Positions 4,901 to 62,770 of a DNA stretch of 64,000 nt are shown piece after piece. Under the pieces are notes generated by a model. That model saw only the letters and a program-made list of their open reading frames with translations. It did no database searches and was not told the DNA's origin. Made by a program: the position numbers and the translations under genes. Each line of letters starts with the position of its first letter. Within the stretch, counting starts at the first letter, position 1. The stretch is from Chiloscyllium plagiosum (lineage: Eukaryota): NCBI RefSeq assembly GCF_004010195.1, contig NC_057751.1:6188598-6252597 (forward strand), written 5' to 3'.

Positions 4901-5094
4901 GTAAAAACAATGACTGCAGATGCTGGAAACCAGATTCTGGATCAGTGGTGCTGGAAGAGCACAGCAATTCAGGCAGCATCCGAAAAGCTTCGAAATCGAC
5001 GTTTCGGGCAAAAGCCCATCATCAGGAATAAAGGTCGATTTCGAAGCTTTTCGGATGCTGCCTGAATTGCTGTGCTCTTCCAGCACCACTGATC
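4901..5094. mobile_element. Palindromic short PLE insert; hammerhead core in the loop
   Basis: Perfect 64-bp inverted repeat 4937-5000 / 5034-5097; 15-bp TSD CAGGT(A/G)TAGAATGTG at 4886-4900 and 5095-5109. Confidence 0.9.
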
Positions 5095-6907
5095 CAGGTG
5101 TAGAATGTGTCCGAGTGAGATGCTCTTTGGAGGGTCAAAGTGGACTTGACGAGCCAAATGGCCTGCTTCCACACTGTCAGGATTCCATGATTCCAATCTG
5201 ACAGTATCCCATTCTCACATTATTCCTGCTGTGGTACTCCAAGGATTTATCTTGGCTCTCTCCACGTACTTCCTGCCTTTAACGTGGTAACATCCAGAAA
5301 ACACAGGATTTTGTTTTGCATGTGCACAATGTAAACCCTCAACTCAATCTCATCACCTATCCACTCGACCTGTCTGCTGTGTAAAATTTAAGTTTCTTTT
5401 ACCAAAATTGAATTTTGAATGGGAAGCAGTTTCTCCAATTAAATCAGGTGGAAACTGAAACCATTTTCTGCACACCATCCACAGATGTAGATGTTTTGCT
5501 GTTGATTCTGACCCTCTCTTTGGCAAATATATGATCTTGAACCAAATTAAGTGCAACCTGAGCGTCCTATTTGGTTGCAAGCTGAGTTTTTGATTACATC
5601 TCCACATCCCAAAAATTGCATATTTGTACATCTGTGACATAGGATCATTCTTCCTTAGCTTCAGATTGTCTGCTGCTGAAATTCTCAGCCATATTTTAGT
5701 CTGGCCCAGCCAGTCACGCTCACATCGAGGAGTGAATTTTAAAAAATGAGAATTCCAACACATTTCTGATTTGCCTTCCATATTCTGCCTTTCATAAACT
5801 TACCCAAAACTTTGCATTTTTCCTGACTCTCACTTTATCCCATTCACCCATATCCCCTGTACAAGCTGACCTACATTGGCTTTCAGGTGAGCCACGCCCC
5901 AATTTTTAAACTTTAAAATTTGCTGTCAAACACTTTGGAAGTCAGGAGCACTGAATCCCCAATTTCCTCCAGCCCTGCAATCTTCATAAATGTCTGCACC
6001 TTTCCAGTTCTTTCTTGAGCATCCTGAATTTTAATAATTCTACTCCTGATGATCGTGCCTTTTGTGAAATGGGCTCTGAGCTCTGGATTCTCTCCATCAC
6101 CCTCTCCTTGTCTCAACCTCTTGCTCGTCCTTTGAGACTTTATACCAACTCAGTTCTTTGAAAAGGTTTTTAGTCTACTCCTCAAATTTCTCTTTGTATG
6201 GGCTTGATGTCAGAGTTCATCAGATTGTACTTCAATGAAGCCTGTGGAAATGTTTCTCTAAGTTAAAGGCTCCTGCATTTTGAAAGTGCAGTTAAAGGTT
6301 GGCTTGAAATTGATCTACATTCAATGGTTTTTTTTAAAGAATCACAGGAACCAACTCAGGATATTAGGACACACCATTGTATTGAGGGATGAATGCACAG
6401 GACCTAATCTAATCAGATGCAATGACAAGCTCTGGACTTGTCTGCTAATTCACATTCTTGTTTCATAGCTGCCTCCTTCCCCTTTCCTCTGGAACCTCTG
6501 ACAACTACCCACTCCGCCCAGCTTCCTCATTTCTGCTCTCGAGCATATCCTCAATTTTAATTGCTCCACCTTTTGTGACTTGCTTTCATTTGGTTAGACT
6601 TCCTTCCTAAATTTCCTTCCTAAATCCCTTGATCTCTCTGACTTACATACTTCAAAATGTGCCTTAATTTTTTTTTGTTCTGTAAGACCTCCTGTTGAAA
6701 TATATTCTTGCATAACTTCAGTTTGGTAACATTTCCATGAGGTGCCCTGGCATCTTGCACTATATTAAGGGCACTATATTAATGCAACTTGATGTTTCCT
6801 GTGGTCAAGGTTGACAATGAAGAAACCAAGTGAAGAGTAGGGAACTCTTCCAATTTATTGACCAGACATTTTCCTAATCCAGCACCACAAAACAAGCACA
6901 GGAACAG

Positions 6908-11539: not shown

Positions 11540-11639
11540 TGAAAATGTGTTGCTGGAAAAGCGCAGCAGGTTACGCAGCATTCAAGGAACAGGAGAATCG
11601 ACGTTTCGGGCATAAGCCCTTCTTCAGGAATGAGGCCTG
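11540..11639 (-). mobile_element. Short PLE fragment inserted in L1
   Basis: 12-bp TSD AATTA(C/T)AGTAGC at 11528-11539 and 11640-11651. Confidence 0.85.
11595..11632 (-). ncRNA. Minimal type I hammerhead ribozyme motif
   Basis: Reverse strand: CTGAAGA-A-GGGC-TTAT-GCCC-GAAA-CG-TC; intact core, 4-bp stem II, weak stem I. Confidence 0.7.
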
Positions 11640-14173: not shown

Positions 14174-15577
14174 TGGAGAAAGTGAAGACTGCAGATGCTG
14201 GAGATCAGAGCTGAAAAATGTGTTGCTGGAAAAGCGCAGCAGGTCAGGCAGCATCCAAGGAGCAGGAGAATCGACGCTTCGGGCATAAGCCCTTCTTCAG
14301 GAATGAGGAAGGTGTGCCAAGCAGGCTAAGATAAAAGGTAGGGAGGAGGGCCTTAGGGGAGGGGCGTNNNNNNNNNNNNNNNNNNNNNNNNNNNNNNNNN
14401 NNNNNNNNNNNNNNNNNNNNNNNNNNNNNNNNNNNNNNNNNNNNNNNNNNNNNNNNNNNNNNNNNNNNNNNNNNNNNNNNNNNNNNNNNNNNNNNNNNNN
14501 NNNNNNNNNNNNNNNNNNNNNNNNNNNNNNNNNNNNNNNNNNNNNNNNNNNNNNNNNNNNNNNNNNNNNNNNNNNNNNNNNNNNNNNNNNNNNNNNNNNN
14601 NNNNNNNNNNNNNNNNNNNNNNNNNNNNNNNNNNNNNNNNNNNNNNNNNNNNNNNNNNNNNNNNNNNNNNNNNNNNNNNNNNNNNNNNNNNNNNNNNNNN
14701 NNNNNNNNNNNNNNNNNNNNNNNNNNNNNNNNNNNNNNNNNNNNNNNNNNNNNNNNNNNNNNNNNNNNNNNNNNNNNNNNNNNNNNNNNNNNNNNNNNNN
14801 NNNNNNNNNNNNNNNNNNNNNNNNNNNNNNNNNNNNNNNNNNNNNNNNNNNNNNNNNNNNNNNNNNNNNNNNNNNNNNNNNNNNNNNNNNNNNNNNNNNN
14901 NNNNNNNNNNNNNNNNNNNNNNNNNNNNNNNNNNNNNNNNNNNNNNNNNNNNNNNNNNNNNNNNNNNNNNNNNNNNNNNNNNNNNNNNNNNNNNNNNNNN
15001 NNNNNNNNNNNNNNNNNNNNNNNNNNNNNNNNNNNNNNNNNNNNNNNNNNNNNNNNNNNNNNNNNNNNNNNNNNNNNNNNNNNNNNNNNNNNNNNNNNNN
15101 NNNNNNNNNNNNNNNNNNNNNNNNNNNNNNNNNNNNNNNNNNNNNNNNNNNNNNNNNNNNNNNNNNNNNNNNNNNNNNNNNNNNNNNNNNNNNNNNNNNN
15201 NNNNNNNNNNNNNNNNNNNNNNNNNNNNNNNNNNNNNNNNNNNNNNNNNNNNNNNNNNNNNNNNNNNNNNNNCGAGGTAGCGCTGATACAGTCATCGATG
15301 TAGCGGAGGAAAAGGTGGGGGTGGTGCCAGTGTAGCTGCGGAAGATGGACTGTTCCACATATCCGACGAAGAGGCAAGCATAGCTGGGACCCATGCGGGT
15401 GCCCATGGCTACTCCTTTGGTTTGGAGGAAGTGGGAGGATTGGAAAGAGAAGTTGTTCAAAGTGAGGATCAGTTCAGTCAGTCGAAGGAGGGTGTCAGTG
15501 GAAGGGTATTGGTTGGGTTGGCAGGAAAGGAAGAAGCGGAGGGCTTTGAGGCCTTCGTGATGGGGGATGGAGGTGTC
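14174..15577 (-). mobile_element. Penelope-like element spanning the gap; RT motifs present
   Basis: TSIPHHEGL...LNNFSF...QTKGVAMGTRMGPSYACLF...FLRYIDD on the minus strand; PLE terminus at 14174-14367. Confidence 0.9.
14368..15272. other. Assembly gap (905 N)
   Basis: Run of N. Confidence 1.
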
Positions 15578-15809
15578 CCTATACATTACCTTTCAGCCTT
15601 ACCTATCTCGAGAGATGCAGGCTGGTCACTCTGTTGTATAAAGTTTGGTTTGTAAGATTCTTAACACTGCGTGGTATATTAAGCATGATCAGTATGATGA
15701 TGCCACATGGAATCAGGTGGGGGCAACAACTTTGAATTTCAAAGCTTCAAGACTGAACATGGAGGTTTCCCTTGCTATCTTAGTCATAATGTCTGTCATG
15801 TCAATGTAA

Positions 15810-15980
15810 AATTAAAAATCACACAACACCAGGTTATCGTCCAATAGGTTATTCCACAACCACCTGGTGAAGGAGCAGCACTCCGAAAGCGAGTGCTTCC
15901 AAATAAACCTGTTGGACTATAAACTGGTGTTGTGTGATTTTTAACTTTGTACACCCCAGTCCAATACTGGCACCTTCAAA
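15810..15980. mobile_element. Short palindromic PLE-type element, second family, degenerate hammerhead
   Basis: Arms AAAATCACACAACACCAG / CTGGTGTTGTGTGATTTT; core CTGGTGA-A-GGAG...CTCC-GAAAGCGA; 14-bp TSD TCATGTCAAT(G/T)TAA at 15796-15809 and 15981-15994. Confidence 0.75.
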
Positions 15981-16724
15981 TCATGTCAATTTAATTGTAT
16001 CTCATTGCTATCATACAATAAGTCTTCAATTACCAGTCGGTTTTCCTCTTCAACTTCCAACCAATGAGGCTCTGAAGATTCCTACCAGGAAAAAGGATGG
16101 TGGCAGCAGATCTACAGTTTAGATCTTCTTCTGTCATGTGCCTTGATGAGGATTCACCTCAGAACACAACCTGCAGGAAGTTTGTGGTGCCACAGAGCTG
16201 GTAATCCAGAATCTTAAGCCAATATTCTTGGGGCATGGGTTTATATCCCATCATGGCAGGCAGCAAAATTGTAATTCAGTAAAAATCTGGAATTAAACAC
16301 TCGCCTAAAGGTAGCCATTTAACCACTGGCAATTGTTGTTAAAATCAATTTGGTTCACCAATGTCCTTCAGGAATTGAAATTTGCTATCTTAATCTGGCA
16401 TGGCCAAGAGGTGACTGCAGATCCACAGCAATGTTGATCACTCTGAATTGCACTCTGTGCAATTTGGGAGGGGGATAAATACCAGCTTAGCCAGCAATGT
16501 GTATGAATGAAAAAGTATTCCTGTCATTGTTGACTGGTCTGGAATGTACAAAAGACACAGTGAAATAGTGATGCTTTTATGTTGCAAGTGCTAATGAAGA
16601 CTTGTGCTGCTGCCAAATATTTCGTGTTTCATAAGACTAATGTTGTGAAATGTTTGTCACTGGCTCTTCCAAACCATGGAGACAGCTTCAAGGCCCTTGT
16701 GGCAGCATGTAAAAATTAAGCCTC

Positions 16725-25107: not shown

Positions 25108-25124
25108 GATTGGTGTGATGTAGT

Positions 25125-25306
25125 GTGGTGCTGGAAAAGCACAGCCGGTCAGGCAGCATCTGAGGAGCAGGAGAGTCAACATTTCGAGCATAAGCTCTTC
25201 ATCAGGAATATTGCCTGATGCTCGGATGCTGTCTGGCCGGCTGTGCTTTTCCAGCACCACATTTTTTTTACTCTAATCTCCAGCATCTTCAGTCCTCACT
25301 TTCTCC
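25125..25306. mobile_element. Palindromic short PLE insert
   Basis: Inverted arms GTGGTGCTGGAAAAGCACAGCCGG / CCGGCTGTGCTTTTCCAGCACCAC; exact 15-bp TSD TTGGTGTGATGTAGT at 25110-25124 and 25307-25321. Confidence 0.88.
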
Positions 25307-27337: not shown

Positions 27338-28026
27338 CAGAACAAAGGATCATAGAACAATACAGCACAGAACAGGCCCTTCGGCCCACGATGTTGTGCC
27401 GAACATTTGTCCTAGCTTAAGCACCCATCCATGTACCTATCCAATTGCCGCTTAAAGGTCGCCAATGATTCTGACTCTGCCACTCCTACAGGCAGCACAT
27501 TCCATGACCCCACCACTCTCTGGGTAAAGAACCTACCCCTGACATCTCCCCTATACCTTTACCCTTCACCTTAAATTTATGTCCCCTTGTAACACTCTGT
27601 TGTACCCGGGGAAAAAGTTTCTGTCTACTCTATCTATTCCTCTGATCATCTTATAAACCTCTATCAAGTGACAACTCATCCTTCACCGTTCCAATGAGAA
27701 AAGGCCTAGCACGCTCAACCTATCCTCGTACAATCTATTCTTCATTCCAGGCAACATCCTGGTAAATCTTCTCTGCACCCTCTCCAAAGCTTCCACATCT
27801 TTCCTAAAGTGAGGTGTCCAGAACTGCACACAGTACTCCAAATGTGACCTAACCAAAGTCCTGTACAGCTGCAACATCACTCCACGACTCTTGAATTCAA
27901 TCCCTCTGCTAATGAAAGCTAATACACCATAGACCTTCTTACAAGCTCTATCCACCTGAGTGGCAACTTTCAAAGATCTATGAACATAGACCCCGAGATC
28001 CCTCTGCTTATCTACTTTACTAAGAT
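27338..28026 (-). mobile_element. CR1 LINE 3' fragment (distinct subfamily)
   Basis: QRDLGVYVHRSLK...LEYCVQFWTPHFRKDVEALERVQRRFTRMLPG. Confidence 0.93.
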
Positions 28027-28287
28027 CAGTGCAAGGAAGCGTTTTCATACCTACCCCTTGGGTCCAATATTTTCAGGGCTATCAAGAGAGCTGTTGGCCA
28101 TTGTGTTGGGAATGTTATGGAAAGGTAACAGGAAATATATTCTCCAGAGTTTGTCCATATTTTCAATGGTTTCTTTTTCCCCTGAAGCTGAGGGCTGTCA
28201 AGATTATGAGTAAGAGCATGCATTGTATTAGCAAAAAGCAAATAGCATGAGATTTGAGCTGCTTTACTGTCAAAATTCAGTATAATA

Positions 28288-28630: not shown

Positions 28631-29329
28631 AAATCAAAGGACACTATTCTGTCCTTGTACAGGGTTGAAGTGCAACTGGAGCGCTCCATGAATCACAGTC
28701 ACGATTGCATTGTAGTAATTGCCTCAATATGTTCAGAGGAGATTCACAAGAATCTTTCCCAGTAACCATCAGATAATCAGATTGGTCTGAGGGACCCTAT
28801 CATTATGCAGACTAAAATAGCTTGTAAAACCACTCTGCCATTGCTACATCCCAACTGAATTTCTGTGTTTATACATTCTGCTCATTCACAGTTGCTCCCA
28901 GGCAGCCGATAAAACTCCCACTATAGTCTGAAATCCACTTCCATTTCTAGTCATAACATATCCACTGGCTGCTGACCTTTATTGCATCCTTACTTCTTAT
29001 TCATTGTTCACCCTTCATTTTGTTGGTATCTTCTGTACTCTTTAATTTTCCCCATGTTCTTGGTAAACCTTATCATCTGCTATTTACTCTTGTAGGTATT
29101 TAACATCTTGAAACCCACCTCAAGAATGGAATTGGATTGTGTTTTCTAAGTTGAATTTGGAACACAGTTCATTCGATTGGTTCCTGTCCTGCACGTATTC
29201 TACAAGAACACTCAATTTTACCTGATTGCGCCAAATTTTTTAGTGCCCTTTTCATGTTGCTGTCTCTCTCCTGATTATATGGCTTCAAATCTAAAACGGC
29301 ACAGTACAGATGGTGATGCATTGTGTGAG

Positions 29330-29769
29330 GTTCCATATTTTGGGTGAAAGGTTATGTTGCTTTGAAATAGAAGGAATCGTAGGTAGAAATCCTTGTGCAG
29401 AAACGTAACCACAGAAGTTGAGGCCCATAATCCAGTGCTGTATTTAGAGAATGCTGCACTGTCAGAGGAGCTGCCTTTCAGATAACTTGTCAAGCCGAGA
29501 TCCCATCAACTCTCTCAGATGGATGCAAAAGGTCCAGAGCATTATTCAAAGAAAACCAGCCGTCCTCTTACCCAGTGACTTTGCTGATTGTTATAATCTC
29601 AATCAAGAGCTCTAAAATAGATTATCTGTGGTAAACATCAGAGGCTGCTGTGCAGTGTATATAAAATCACTGCCACAAATTCTATATGACAACAGTGACA
29701 CCTCACGCAAAAACAAACTATTTTTGTAAAGCACTTTGGGGCATCCCAAAGTTATGCAAAGTGTAAGCC
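29330..29769 (+). mobile_element. Deu-domain SINE (SacSINE1/AmnSINE1-like)
   Basis: TGCTGCACTGTCAGAGG...CTCTCAGATGGATGCAAAAG...AGATTATCTG and L2-type tail GTAAAGCACTTTGGG; recalled from consensus. Confidence 0.7.
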
Positions 29770-29782
29770 TTTCTTTTAGGCA

Positions 29783-30126
29783 AAGTTAAAAATCACACAA
29801 CACCAGGTTATAGTCCAACAGGTTTAATTGGAAGTGCTAGCTTTTGGAGCGCTCCTCCTTCATCAGGTGGTTGTTCCACCTAATGAAGGAGCAGCGCTCA
29901 GAAAGGCCTAACCAAAATCCTGTACAGCTGCAACATCACTTCACGACTCTTGAATTCAATCCCTCTGCTTTTGGAGCGCTCCTCCTTCATCAGGTGGTTG
30001 TTCCACCTAATGAAGGAGCAGCGCTCAGAAAGCTAGTGCTTCCATTTAAACCTGTTGGACTCTAACCTTGTGATGTGTGATTTTTAACTTTGTATACCCC
30101 AGTCCAACACTGGCATCTCCATGTCA
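29783..30126. mobile_element. Palindromic PLE-type element (second family) with internal duplication and CR1 insert
   Basis: Same arms as 15810-15980; 13-bp TSD TTTCTTTTA(G/A)GCA at 29770-29782 and 30127-30139. Confidence 0.85.
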
Positions 30127-30997
30127 TTTCTTTTAAGCATAATGTCTTCAGTATGTTCAACGGATTTCTATTTCACTGGAAGTTTACTTGGCTTCAACTG
30201 GTGAAATACTTCACTAATTTCCTGCTTGATGCCCTTTTACAGCAGCTGCATGACTTCAACAATTGAATTATTGGGTTTAATCTACTGTTTAAATGGCGCA
30301 ATGAGCCACTAAACTCACAAATACTCCAGTAAACCTAATGAACTCACCTCATTGTTACTCTCTCTGTGATCGCTACACATTTCTCTTTCATTTTAGTTCT
30401 CATGAATAGTTTATCTGCAAATCCCCCATGAAACCTTTACAAACATTTGGTACTTAGGGACTTGCAGTAAATCTCATTGACCAGTTTGTGCATCTCCCCA
30501 AAGTATTGTTCAGTTCACAGTTCTATTTATTATTGCATTGATTGGAACCTGATTTGCTCAAATTGACTGCTTTCTTTGTTAATACATTTCTTTTAGCAAT
30601 TTGCAATGGATTTTTTGGTTGTGGAGAAATTCCAAATATTCATTCCATTAATTGTTGTAGTAACTTGATAAGTGATGCAAAGCATACTGGGGAGAAATAT
30701 ATTTTTCTCAGAATATAATTGGTCAGAGTTAGTTTTTAATTCAAAAGCATGAAAAAGAAAAAATAATTGGGACGCTTGTTGCTTTGAATGGGTTCTCACA
30801 CAAAACTATTCATGAAAGCTTACTGCTTCACTTAAGGTGTTTTGCACATTGGCTGGAGGAAATGAAATAATTTGTAACTAAATCTTTTGGCCATCCCTCC
30901 TCATTGTACCTTCTTTGAGTCAGCACTCATATATTCCCTGTCACCCCAACAAGGTATGAAGATAAATCTTTACTTCTGTAAAAAGTTTCAATCGCTT

Positions 30998-31915
30998 AGA
31001 GTCATAGAATCATAGAGATGTACAGCACAGAAACAGACCCTTCAGTCCAACCTGTCCATGCCGACCAGATATCCCAACCCAATCTAGTCCCACCTGACAG
31101 CACCCGGCCCATATCCCTCCAAACCCTTCCTATTCATATACCCTCCAAATGCCTCTTAAATGTTGCAATTGTACCAGCCTCCACCACATCCTCTAGCAGC
31201 TCATTCCATACCCGTACCACCCTCTGCGTGGAAAAGTTGCCCCTTAGGTCTCTTTTATATCTTTCTCCTCTCACCCTAAACCTATGCACTCTAGTTCTGG
31301 ACTTCCCAATCCCAGGGAAAAGACTTTTTCTATTTATCCTATCCATGCCCCTCATAATTTTGTAAACCTCTATATGGTCACCCTCAGCCTTCTAGGGAAA
31401 CAGCCCCAGCCTGTTCAGCCTCTTGCTATAGCTTAAATCCTTCAACCCTGCCAACATCCATGTAAATCTTTTCTGAATCCTTTCAAGTTTCACAACATCT
31501 TTCCGATAGAAAGGTGACCAGAATTGCATGCAATATTCCAACAGTGGCCTAACCAATGTCTTGTACAGGTGCAACATGACCTCCCATCTCCTGTACTCAA
31601 TACTCTGATCGATAAAGGAAAGCATACTAAATGCCTTCTTCACTATCCTACCTACCTGCGACTCCACTTTCAAGGAGCTATGAACCTGCACTGCAAGGTC
31701 TCTTTGCTCAGCAACACTCCCTAGGACCTTACCATTAAGTGTATAAGTCTTGCTAAGATTCACTTTTCCAAAATGCAGCACTTCGCATTTATCTGAATTA
31801 AACTCCATCTGCTACTTCTCAGCCCATTGGCCTATCTGATCAAGATCCTGTTGTAATCTGAGGTAACCTTCTTCGCTGTCCACTACATCTCCAATTTTGG
31901 TATCATCTGCAAACA
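30998..31915 (-). mobile_element. CR1 LINE 3' fragment
   Basis: FADDTKIG at the right end; MEFNSDKCEVLHFG...LEYCMQFWSP; tail at 30998-31017. Confidence 0.95.
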
Positions 31916-32221: not shown

Positions 32222-34243
32222 GGATGTAGGTTTGCTCGCTGAGCTGGAAGGTTCATTTCCAGATGTTTCGTTACCCTACTAGATAATATTTTCAGTAGGC
32301 CTCAGGTGAAGCAATGCTGAAAATTCCTGCTTTCTATTTATATGTTTAGGTTTCTTTGGGTTGGTGATGTTATTTTCTGTGGTGAAGTCACTTCCTGTTC
32401 CTTTTCTCAGAGGATGGTAGTTGGGGTCTAACTCGATGTGTTTGTTGATAGAGTTCCGGTTGGAATGCCATGCTTCTAGGAATTCTCATGCACGTCTTTT
32501 TTTGGCATGTCCTCGGATGGATGTGTTGTCCCAGTCAAAGTGGCGTCCTTCCTCATCCGTCTGTGAGGATACGTGTGAGAGAGGGTCATGTCTTTTTGTG
32601 GCGAGTTGGTATTCATGTATCCTGGTGGCTAGTTTTCTGCCTGTTTGTGCAATGTAGTGTTTGTTACAGTCCTTGCACAGTATTTTGTAAATGACATTAG
32701 TTTTGCTCAATGTCTGTATAGGGTCTTTTAAGTTCATTAGCTGCTGTTTTCATGTGTAGGGTTTATGGGCTACCATGATGCAAAGGGGTCTGAGTAGTCT
32801 GGCAGTCATTTTTGAGATGTTTTTGATGTAGGGGAGAGTGGCTAGGATTTCTGGACATGTTTTGTCTGCTTGTTTGGGTTTGTTGCTGAGAAATCGGCGG
32901 ACTGTGTTCATTCGGTACCCATTCTTTTTGAATATATGGTATAGGCGATTTTTCTCTGCTCTGCGTAGTTCCTCTGTGCTGCAGTGTGTGTGTTGGCTCA
33001 TTGAAATAATGTTCTGATGCAGCTTCGATCGTGGGTGTTTCATTGGTTCCGTTGGATCTCCGGTATCACGGTTCTCAGCGGAGCCAGTAATGCAGAGACT
33101 TGAACAAACAGCTCTGCCAACCATCCAACCCAAACTTTGGGTCCACTACGTGGATGACACCTTTGTCATCACTGAACAAATTAGAGGAAACATTCAAGAC
33201 CATCAATAATACCCTTACTGGCATAAAATTCACTAAAGAGGAGGAAAACAAAAACAAATTGCCATTCCTAGATGTTGCAGTAGAGCGAACAGACAATGGG
33301 GAACTTCAGACCAGCGTCCAGAGGAAAACAACCCATACAGACCAAATATTGAGCTACAGAAGCAATCATCCCAACGCCCACGAACGAAGCTGCATCAGAA
33401 CATTATTTCAATGAGCCAACACACTGCAGCACAGAGGAACTATGCAGAGTAGATGATAATCGCCTATACCGTGTATTCAAAAAGAATGGGTACCCAATTA
33501 ACACAGTCCGCCGATTTCTCAGCAACAAATCCAAGCAAGCAGACAAAACGCATCCAGAAACCCTAGCCACTCTCCCATACATCAAAGACATCTCGGAAAT
33601 GACTGCCAGACTACTCAGACCCCTTTGTATCATGGTCATCCACAAACCCACCAACACATTAAAACAGCAGCTAAAGAACTTGAAAGACCCTATACAGACA
33701 TTGAGCAAAACTAATGTCATTTACAAAATATCGTGCAAGGACTGTAACAAACACTACATTGGACAAACAGGCAGAAAACTAGCCACCAGGATACATGAAT
33801 ACCAACTCGCCACAAAAAGACATGACCCTCTCTCACACATATCCTCACAGACGGATAAGGAAGGACAACACTTTGACTGGGACAACACATCCATCCTCGG
33901 CCAAACAAAGACATGCATGAGAATTCCTAGAAGCATGGCATTCCAACCGGAACTCTATCAACAAACACATCGAGTTAGACCCCATCTAACACCCCCTGAG
34001 AAAAGGAACAGGAAGTGACTTCACCACAGGAAATAACATCACCACAGGTAATGACTTCACCAACCCAAAGAAACCTAAACATATAAATAGAAAGCAGGAA
34101 TTTTCAGCAGTGCTTTGCCTGAGGCCCACTGAAGATGTTACCTAATAGGGTAACAAAACATCTGGAAATGAACCTTCCAGTTCAGCGAGCAAACCTACAT
34201 CCAAAACCTCAACCTGAGCTACAAATCTTCTCAAAACTCGCTA
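32222..34243 (+). mobile_element. Penelope-like element (RT C-half plus GIY-YIG) with a long inverted 5' copy
   Basis: GSP...W.HYVDDTF, LPFLDV, NVIYKISC.DC...YIGQTGR; arms 32222-33039 and 33373-34202 are inverted; TSD ATTTA(T)GAACACA at 32209-32221 and 34244-34255. Confidence 0.93.
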
Positions 34244-42899: not shown

Positions 42900-44290
42900 A
42901 TGTACAAAGGGAGGGTCTGCAGGCATGCTGTGTTTCCCTGCAGATGTATGAAAAATAGTGCTGGAGATCCTACACATGACACAGGAAGCCAAATCTGCCG
43001 CATACTGCAGACAGATCTGCAGCTGGTCAACTTGAGGGGCAGCAAAATGCCATGGCTCTGACTATCACAATGGCGTTGCACTTCTCAGCCATCTGTGCTT
43101 TTTGAAAAATGTGTGGTATCTCTCAAACAGTAGTCCATATCTAAGATCACTGATGCCCTTCACAGGAAAGCAAGACAGCTTGTTAAGGTCACCATGGATT
43201 CAGAGAGTCATGGTGGCCAAGCCATTGGATATATAGCCATTGCTGGGTACAAGAGATCTTTGACATCATGTACATGGTAGTCAGAGTTTCATGGCATTAT
43301 CCAGCCAGATTCCTGACAGAAAGGGATTTCACTCCCTCAATGTCCAACTTGTTTGTGAACACAGACAACAGTTCCTACAGAAATGAATAGGTCTAGTTTT
43401 GGAAGTACCAGTGAAAGCAAACAAGAGAAGATGGGGAACAGGGAACAGGGAAAATGAAGTGACAGAAAGCTTGAGTGTTGACAGTGAACAAAGAAATGGT
43501 TGTCTTTCAATGGGCAAGGAAAAGATAAGGGCATGTAAATGTGTACAGTGAACAAAACTGGAACTTGAAGTAGAAATTACTTTAATGTGACATGACATAG
43601 TAACATGACAAAAATATGGTTCAAGCCAGGACAGGATTGGATACTTAACATCCCAGGTTATCAGGCTTCCGGTACAATCAGGATGGGTTTCAAAAGAAAA
43701 CTGGACATATAATTAAAGTGATTAACTTAGAGGATGAAAGAGGTAGGGCTGGCCAAAGGGATGAGCTGCGTAGCTCTTTCACAAGCTGGTATAGACACGA
43801 GGTTGAATGGCTCCTTCTCCCTTATACAATTGTATCCTGTTAGATTTAAAAATACTGACATTGTGCATAACTCCTATGTTCTTCAGATATTTGATTCCCT
43901 GCCTCACCTCCTGGACTGGCTTTTGACTGATAAGTCATTTCCCCTGGAAGACATGGCTAATAACCCCAGTCATAACCCTCACTTGGATGGCACTACAGTG
44001 TCAGCTAGGCATCTATTTGCATCATTTTCAACACATCTTGACTTCAGAAGATGGCGTTCTATTGTCTGGACCAATCGGGAGGAATTTTTGTCAGAGTCTC
44101 TGGAATACTGGCTGCTTGCTGTGCCTTCCGATACTTAGCTCTGCGACTGGCTGAAAAGAGGGGGAGATGGACTCCGCTGATGAAAAGCGTAGGAGGAGAG
44201 TCAGGCAGTGATTTTGAGGGAGTTCATGCTGATGATGAGGATGGTAAAGAAGCCGGGGACGACTAAGATGAAGCAGCAATGCCTGAGAAA
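42900..44290 (+). mobile_element. PIF/Harbinger transposase remnant, interrupted at about 43380-43830 by CR1-like sequence
   Basis: CGISQT, TDAL, RKGFHSLNVQLVC, WLLTDKSFPL (cf. GDKGYP), CLDQSGG...AACCA; multiple stops and frameshifts. Confidence 0.8.
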
Positions 44291-61726: not shown

Positions 61727-61960
61727 GAGAAAGAGAGGACTGCAGATGCTGGAGATCAGAGCTGAAAATGTGTTGCTGGAAAAGCGCAGCAGGTCAGGCA
61801 GCATCCAAGGAGCAGGAGAATCAACGTTTCGGGCATGAGCCCTTCTTCAGGAAATGAAAGGTATGATTTCCTGAAGAAGGGTTCATGCCCGAAACGTCGA
61901 TTCTCCTGCTCCTTGGATGCTGCCTGACCTGCTGCGCTTTTCCAGCAACACATTTTCAGC
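61727..61960. mobile_element. Palindromic short PLE insert with two back-to-back hammerhead cores
   Basis: 98-bp arms 61758-61855 / 61866-61963 with 2 mismatches; 17-bp TSD TCTTAATTATAAGCAGG at 61710-61726 and 61961-61977. Confidence 0.92.
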
Positions 61961-62770
61961 TCTTAATTATAAGCAGGCAACTTCCCTGGCTCTTAACCTT
62001 TACTCAAGTGTGGCATTTCATTCCGGTGGAATTTAACGACTATTAAATATTTTAAAGCATGTAATTCCTTACATTTTTCTTGCTGTGCCTTTTACCTCCC
62101 TCTGTCCTGGGATTGCTACATTGTTCCAGTGAAGCTGAAGGTCAGCAATTGCATCTTTTGTTCAGACTATTTTTAACCGATCAGAATCTACAAGTTCAAC
62201 AATTTCAGATCATGACCTCGACTATATTTTTAAAGAACAGATCCTGGCAATGTTTCAATTGCTTGCATCCGACCATTATCTTGTTAGTATGGAAACAAAA
62301 ATACTGCGGATGCTGGAAATCTGAAACAAACACAGAATGCTGAACTGCGCATCTGATGCTCTGGGAATACCACAACATCCACGGAGAGACAAGCAGTTTC
62401 GAATCCAGTATGACATATCTTCAGAACTGTCATTATATTTTCACATTGGTATTTGTGGAACCTATATGTGTACCAAATGGAACTACTTTTTCTTTCTTTC
62501 ATAGAAACATAGGAACAAGAGTAGGCCATTCAGCCTGTTTTGCCATTTATTGAGATCATGGCTCTCTGTCTCCGAATTCCATATGGCCGCTTTTTGGTGC
62601 ATATCCCTTTCATTTTAAGTGAAAGTGTTCTGTCTCAGATTTGAAGAAAGCCTCATGCTGTTCCCACAATCCTATCTTTCATTCTTATACCATCAGCTGT
62701 TTTGCTTTTCTATCACTGCCGCCTTCCAATGTGTCACAGCACTTTTCTTTATTTCCTTCAGAGTGCACAC

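Follow-up and report, generated by a model that had tools for sequence, protein, structure and literature searches.

Endonuclease-bearing Penelope-like elements (PLEs) leave a characteristic architecture in genomes, consisting of an inverted pLTR without a tail, a tail, and a short TSD, as set out in the accessible sections of Arkhipova et al. 2013 (PMC3846280). Minimal hammerhead motifs (min-HHRs) occur in PLEs as pairs on opposite strands, 100-700 bp apart, according to the accessible text of Cervera and De la Pena 2014 (PMC4209133). The element described here lies in a 64-kb stretch of shark DNA, the whole of which was analysed and which we call the window. It likewise has an inverted tail-less arm, a direct arm, a 34-nt tail, a TSD of 9-13 bp and two min-HHR motifs on opposite strands. 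While captures between pLTRs arise at insertion in the PLEs covered by the accessible part of PMC3846280, the duplication in our element postdates the decay of the element.

This duplication can be compared with several known mutation classes. Staggered nicks that leave 3' overhangs of 43-50 nt give rise to tandem duplications, either by NHEJ/CST-Pol alpha or by TMEJ, and those formed by TMEJ extend over almost all of the overhang and carry microhomology (accessible sections of Schimmel et al. 2021, PMC8355091). Our locus is alike in its size (<100 bp), in the direct duplication between what would be opposite-strand nicks, and in the junction microhomology of the TMEJ form. The breaks in that study were, however, made by Cas9 in cultured cells and its accessible sections do not mention hairpins, whereas the unit duplicated here is the centre of a hairpin with a 61-nt foreign patch. 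Leaving the host sequence, copying a foreign template, returning and replicating the host segment again defines the 'cycle' class of templated insertion (PMC7025897, accessible part), and the replication models proposed for such events are inseparable by breakpoints alone (PMC4056370, likewise in part). As in the 'cycles' and local n-jumps of Li et al. 2020 (PMC7025897) and in FoSTeS, MMBIR and serial replication slippage (PMC4056370), we found a template excursion followed by a return, with junction microhomology; the events treated in the accessible parts of these papers are somatic and mostly far larger, whereas ours measures 127 bp altogether and was found in an assembled shark genome. The class 2 templated sequence insertions of Onozawa and Aplan 2016 (PMC5110952) share with our locus a short templated patch at a break, microhomology, and the lack of poly(A) or another tail. 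In the accessible text class 2 is defined by a distant template; for our insert, the window contains a 95% match 2.06 kb away. That text makes target duplication a mark of class 1, together with poly(A) and TTTT/A, yet our 66-bp duplication comes without those features.

The locus has the host segment twice in direct orientation around an insert, an identifiable template and short junction microhomology, as in cycle-type events. It looks like a real, single and well-preserved example of a known mutation class, and the element that carries it is also of a known kind. No description of centre duplications came up in searches of the literature for this geometry (Penelope, palindrome or cruciform with duplication), which covered few subscription papers.

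A palindromic end fragment of probable PLE origin and its hammerhead motifs

When the additional 127 nt at the locus (one duplicate plus the patch) are left out, a palindrome is obtained with its axis at 29873, arms of ~92 bp and a 34-nt tail on the right side only. The original insertion is flanked by TSD copies at 29770..29782 and 30127..30139 that are identical at 12 of 13 positions, or alternatively by a perfect 9-bp TSD. Arm pairing places the inverted, tail-less arm at 29781..29875 on the minus strand; its inner 36 nt form the left half of the first duplicate, and its end coincides with that of the inverted arm in a family copy at 15808. The rest of the direct arm (plus strand, to 30092) and the one-sided 34-nt tail take up 30033..30126, with 86% identity over 128 nt to 15860-15987. 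Pairing the arms about 29873 gives 10 mismatches in 90 pairs, so that the arms are 11% apart. An inverted arm without the 30-40 nt tail, plus a TSD, is what is expected of a PLE end fragment. The host family is probably a PLE, judging by this architecture and the min-HHR motifs; no ORF adjoins either of its copies in the window.

The second copy of the family, at 15798-15987, consists of a short inverted arm (15808-15850) joined via TTATTCC to a direct arm. It has an apparent TSD of ~10 nt, its hammerhead core is also mutated, and its centre is unlike that of the 29.8-kb copy. A metagenome scan with a 25-letter pattern of the PLE family found no match. Three short palindromes of a different hammerhead-bearing family are present in the window, at 4937-5097, 25124-25261 and 61758-61963. 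The last of these is young: its arms are 95% complementary, its TSD measures 17 nt, and its two cores, arranged head to head, look intact. Of the five short palindromes of this sort in the 64 kb, one has a duplicated centre and the other four do not. Single hammerhead motifs were also seen at 11600, 53348 and 62912. A large inverted repeat at 32222-34202 has arms of ~840 nt that are 90% identical and a weak GIY-YIG match (E 0.0016) in the frame 33353-34015, and we read it as a longer fold-back PLE insertion of another family. A weak match to DDE_Tnp_4 at 43731-44135 (E 0.005) is possibly a remnant of a Harbinger-type transposase.

Both hammerhead motifs of the element at 29.8 kb were read against the min-HHR core, using a position numbering deduced from the min-HHR description. 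The minus-strand motif (29838..29870) has A in place of G12 (29845), and the 3' strand of its helix I is also broken. The plus-strand motif (30003..30038) has A in place of G5 (30009). Neither motif thus contains the invariant core CUGANGA...GAAA...UH, while both keep the helix III palindrome AGCT and the helix II stem GGAGC/GCTC. Each substitution is found in both duplicates (G5A at 29882 and 30009 on the plus strand, G12A at 29845 and 29972 on the minus strand), and the opposite arm retains the canonical base at each mutated position. The combination of G5A and G12A serves as an inactive hammerhead control (PMC6128941, accessible part). A search of the whole window against Rfam gave no match at the gathering score, and a search of 29700-30200 at E <= 10 gave six chance-level matches, none of them to a hammerhead. 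The predicted scissile bonds lie after 30035 on the plus strand and after 29838 on the minus strand, that is 3-4 nt and 2-5 nt outside the ends of the duplication.

The duplicated hairpin centre and the timing of its duplication

An earlier, sequence-only reading of the locus reported an exact 66-bp duplication, and this was borne out: on the plus strand, duplicate 1 (29840..29905) and duplicate 2 (29967..30032) match at 66 of 66 positions, and the exact match extends no further on either side. Among the four exact direct repeats of at least 40 nt in the window, this pair is the longest and the sole local one. The same reading had stressed that the duplication is far longer than local TSDs, and indeed the two PLE insertions with measured flanks have TSDs of 9-17 bp.

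The unit is the centre of the hairpin. As single-stranded DNA it folds at -24.6 kcal/mol, compared with -7.5 +/- 2.3 kcal/mol for 300 shuffled versions, all of which lie above it; the fold contains four mismatches in 30 pairs and a 5-nt loop. Position 29841 pairs with 29905 about the axis. Within the limits set by the microhomologies, the distance from the axis is 30.5-33.5 bp for the left break and 31.5-32.5 bp for the right break, which allows exact symmetry, as the geometry first proposed for this locus requires. The chance of such ends is 0.055 if breaks fall randomly on the arms, and 0.076 for a 66-bp unit spanning the axis. Symmetry of the breaks about the axis was noticed post hoc and concerns one event; we regard it as suggestive, not strong. 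The unit had also been described as bounded by the two AGCT palindromes. Its ends do lie in both AGCTs, but it runs from the G of the left one to the G of the right one and so cuts within the tetramers. AGCT at both ends is not independent evidence, because symmetric breaks in a palindrome always hit the same sequence, and we rejected it as a separate coincidence.

Both junctions are joined over short microhomology only, without long homology. The GCT microhomology noted before at the right junction (29967-29969) was found again, and the left junction adds a 1-nt G microhomology (29905/27846). At the new left junction (29902-29910) AGCT, a palindrome of 4 nt, has been turned into one of 6 nt, AGGCCT, and with the A that follows this resembles helix III of a min-hammerhead. 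The core next to it still carries G5A and helix I cannot form; the motif suggests an imperfect microhomology beyond the single nucleotide. Four bp beyond the end of the duplication the arms show a double mismatch at 29835-29836 (TG versus CA). This could be a 2-nt micro-inversion, and the mismatch would stall hairpin extension near the break.

The palindrome runs on across both outer junctions, and because of this continuity we take the ancestral state to have been a single centre. The duplicates differ at 0 of 66 positions and the arms at 10 of 90 (Fisher p=0.005, or p=0.011 when the double change is counted once), and the four of the 10 arm mismatches that fall inside the unit are all present in both duplicates; the duplication therefore copied an element that had already decayed. 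Likewise, G5A and G12A predate the event, because both duplicates carry them. Read in this way, the duplication is a late, recent event in an old, decayed element, after both ribozymes were dead. Among the 23 sequencing runs listed, 17 hold part of 29000-31000 (up to 0.87 of the sampled words in one species, 0.13-0.32 in two relatives), and only an estimated ~9 of the 201 words could span the new junctions, so these shares are uninformative on the junctions.

The CR1-type insert and its template

The insert between the duplicates (29906..29966, 61 nt, minus strand) corresponds to 22 uninterrupted ORF2 codons without a tail, in keeping with its earlier description as a captured piece of CR1. 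The CR1 label of the insert and of its neighbour is one that we presume from the peptide motif and the tail. Its translation, its family residues and a match of 58 of 61 positions to 27847-27907 trace the insert to a CR1-type template. The match of 29907-29969 to 27848-27910 at 61 of 63 positions was reproduced as reported; over the insert itself, however, three of 61 positions differ and not two, the third being 29906 (G) against 27847 (A). The insert is internal ORF2 sequence, ~500 nt from the tail of the neighbour, and neither junction holds a CR1 3' end. The neighbour is a 5'-truncated CR1-type copy at 27345..28030 on the minus strand (approximate ends), recognized by its translation as the C-terminal part of ORF2, interrupted by one stop and one frameshift. 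For this region 238 of 239 candidate proteins match at E <= 0.001, the best of them 80-83% identical, and the best named relative is a bamboo shark reverse-transcriptase-domain protein (75%). Pfam assigned no family to the CR1 fragments and gave two weak matches among the 20 of 39 long frames searched. An older CR1-type copy of another subfamily lies at 31000-31915 on the minus strand, with 67% identity to the neighbour.

The segment 27847-27910 is a candidate local template, 2.06 kb away in the same orientation and with a 95% match to the insert. It is the only close copy of the insert segment in 63 kb of called bases, with a chance of ~7% for such proximity. The substitutions point elsewhere. 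At 27847 and 27882 the other CR1-type copies in the window (4/4) have the letter of the insert, whereas at 27858 they have that of the neighbour; counts restricted to the copies aligned by BLAST were 4/4, 4/4 and 2/2. Among the 120 protein matches listed, 82 have P where the neighbour has S (13) and 82 have T where the insert has I (10); at the remaining residue the insert has E, as do 40 of 99 matches listed, and the G of the neighbour is outside the four commonest residues. The neighbour thus has two derived letters that are absent from the insert, and a comparison at the level of residues shows no derived one shared by both. The insert is close to the family state, its one private change in 61 being an A at 29917 that is absent from the neighbour and from all four other copies in the window, while at 11 of 91 well-conserved residues the neighbour departs from the majority of the family. 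Under a rough Poisson model, a different copy or RNA is favoured ~6-10 fold over the neighbour. The neighbour is also awkward as a template because the insert differs from it at 3/61 positions while the duplicates differ at 0/66 (p=0.11). The proposal that the copy 2 kb upstream provided the patch is therefore about an even bet, with proximity in favour and the substitution pattern against, and we lean very slightly towards the alternatives, namely another near-consensus copy or CR1 RNA/cDNA.

In the metagenome scan for the CR1 subfamily, 80 loci were kept of 122 confirmed, all at most 63% identical at the protein level, and none of the 80 matches the insert or the PLE arm as DNA. Two proteins (P0050 and P0073) carry Proteus mirabilis as source label and yet are 77-78% identical to the shark-type LINE ORF2 piece; they are probably host DNA in bacterial assemblies.

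Origin and meaning of the duplication

The best explanation in our view, with a probability of roughly three in four, is that a decayed PLE fragment underwent a tandem duplication with templated insertion at the DNA level and that the hairpin determined the ends of the duplication. Such a history would have two steps. Long ago the insertion of a PLE would have produced a 5'-truncated end fragment that had an inverted arm, a tail and a TSD of 9-13 bp; this fragment then decayed, both hammerheads losing an invariant base. Much later, the 66-nt hairpin centre would have become single-stranded and folded. This could happen through nicks on opposite strands ~32 bp to either side of the axis, placed diagonally at the foot of a cruciform or of paired hairpins, so that each end kept the centre as a 3' overhang, or through a nascent strand that folds back at a stalled fork and may expose the template exactly at the mirror position. 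One free 3' end would then copy 61 nt from a CR1-type template, and the ends would be joined through 1-3 nt of microhomology and filled in, giving centre, patch and centre, i.e. a 'cycle of templated insertion' with one insert. Polymerase-theta-type end joining or microhomology-mediated template switching are candidate activities. The order of events, the dead ribozymes, the microhomology, the stable hairpin and ends compatible with symmetry can be read directly at the locus; that the hairpin set those ends is what we infer.

The sequence-only reading had proposed symmetric nicking of a cruciform, or template switching, at the ribozyme sites. Its hairpin-repair half is plausible: the geometry allows symmetry and a CR1-type patch is joined by microhomology. 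The ribozyme role fell away, and cruciform nicking is one of several routes at the DNA level between which the sequence does not discriminate. For a cruciform, the symmetry of the breaks is compatible within the microhomology windows, with folding computed for the single strand only. A centre with four mismatches and a 5-nt loop is a poor candidate for cruciform extrusion from duplex DNA. This weakens the nicking version, and since extrusion from the duplex is doubtful, the single-strand route is at least as likely.

In a ribozyme-driven event, hammerhead cleavage of sense and antisense transcripts would have set the ends before template switching. Both ends are indeed only 2-5 nt from predicted cleavage sites, inside the helix III palindrome, but they are off the scissile bonds, and G5A and G12A, present in both duplicates, are older than the event. 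Even intact min-HHRs are weak and cleave only as dimers in vitro (accessible part of PMC4209133). Pre-existing core mutations and ends off the scissile bonds thus rule out ribozyme cleavage as the cause, and a ribozyme-driven origin is barely credible. The enzymology of a LINE offers a different route, in which CR1 RT started cDNA synthesis inside CR1 RNA from a nick that follows the right-hand GAAAG; the 61 nt of cDNA would then have been attached at another nick, 66 bp distant, and the duplicate would be an overlong TSD. A canonical CR1 TPRT insertion does not fit, as no 3' end or tail of the element is found at a junction and 66 bp replace a short TSD. For the abortive form, the missing tail, the single nucleotide of priming homology and the lack of a TTTT/A-type end at the priming side are difficulties. 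The insert is nonetheless LINE sequence near the family state with one private change in 61, its substitutions suit a template that is young or RNA 6-10 times better than they suit the neighbour, and, read in CR1 orientation, the 3-nt microhomology falls at the 5' junction. Truncated LINE ends usually have microhomology there. Duplications of small size at sites of L1 have also been interpreted as large TSDs (bioRxiv 2024.12.14.628481, accessible part). An abortive LINE insertion leaves the symmetry unexplained unless the hairpin set the second nick, in which case it merges with our main reading, and it would make the neighbour at 2 kb a coincidence (~7%); we hold it to be unlikely.

Everything could instead have been made at the PLE insertion, by a polymerase jump to a local CR1 and back with later homogenisation of the centres, or a decayed palindrome could have been recently re-mobilised with jumps on hairpin RNA. 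An origin at insertion accounts for a nearby template without shared derived letters, the PLE and the neighbour being similar in age (arms 11% apart; neighbour off the family majority at 11/91 residues), and capture between pLTRs has been described in the accessible part of PMC3846280. It requires, however, full-length conversion of a two-copy 66-bp repeat, and fold-back correction would equalise the inverted halves, which differ, while it is the direct copies that are identical; a re-mobilised palindrome would not be likely to have its end precisely at the usual boundary of the arm, next to the TSD. This pair of histories is decidedly improbable. An assembly or library artefact, such as a chimeric read at the hairpin, is a little less probable again. 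A gap of 905 N at 14369-15273 marks the assembly as scaffolded, the copies are perfectly identical and the junctions are known from the assembly alone. Hairpins are known to promote chimeric reads. Conversely, the private letter of the insert at 29917 means that it is not a pasted copy of the neighbour, and the junction overlaps are 1 and 3 nt, far below what assemblers join on; simple graph misassembly was rejected.

A tandem duplication of the hairpin centre with a templated patch has no evident function at this locus and is best viewed as a neutral scar. As a single event it matters little; its value is that of a clean fossil, in which decay mutations date the duplication after ribozyme death, and its ends hint that the hairpin, and not sequence homology, set the duplicated length. 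It is a long shot, but the very abundant shark PLE mini-palindromes might be recurrent hairpin or cruciform break sites long after insertion, with symmetric nicks always in one position, the AGCT of helix III, made perhaps by their own GIY-YIG endonuclease in trans, and with repair repeatedly yielding centre duplications patched from nearby DNA. In that case, scars of cruciform resolution in the germline would have accumulated in the genome as a natural library that can be dated. If many copies of the family had the same symmetric ends, they would show across the genome how short imperfect palindromes are cut and repaired in germ cells, a process that is difficult to watch directly.
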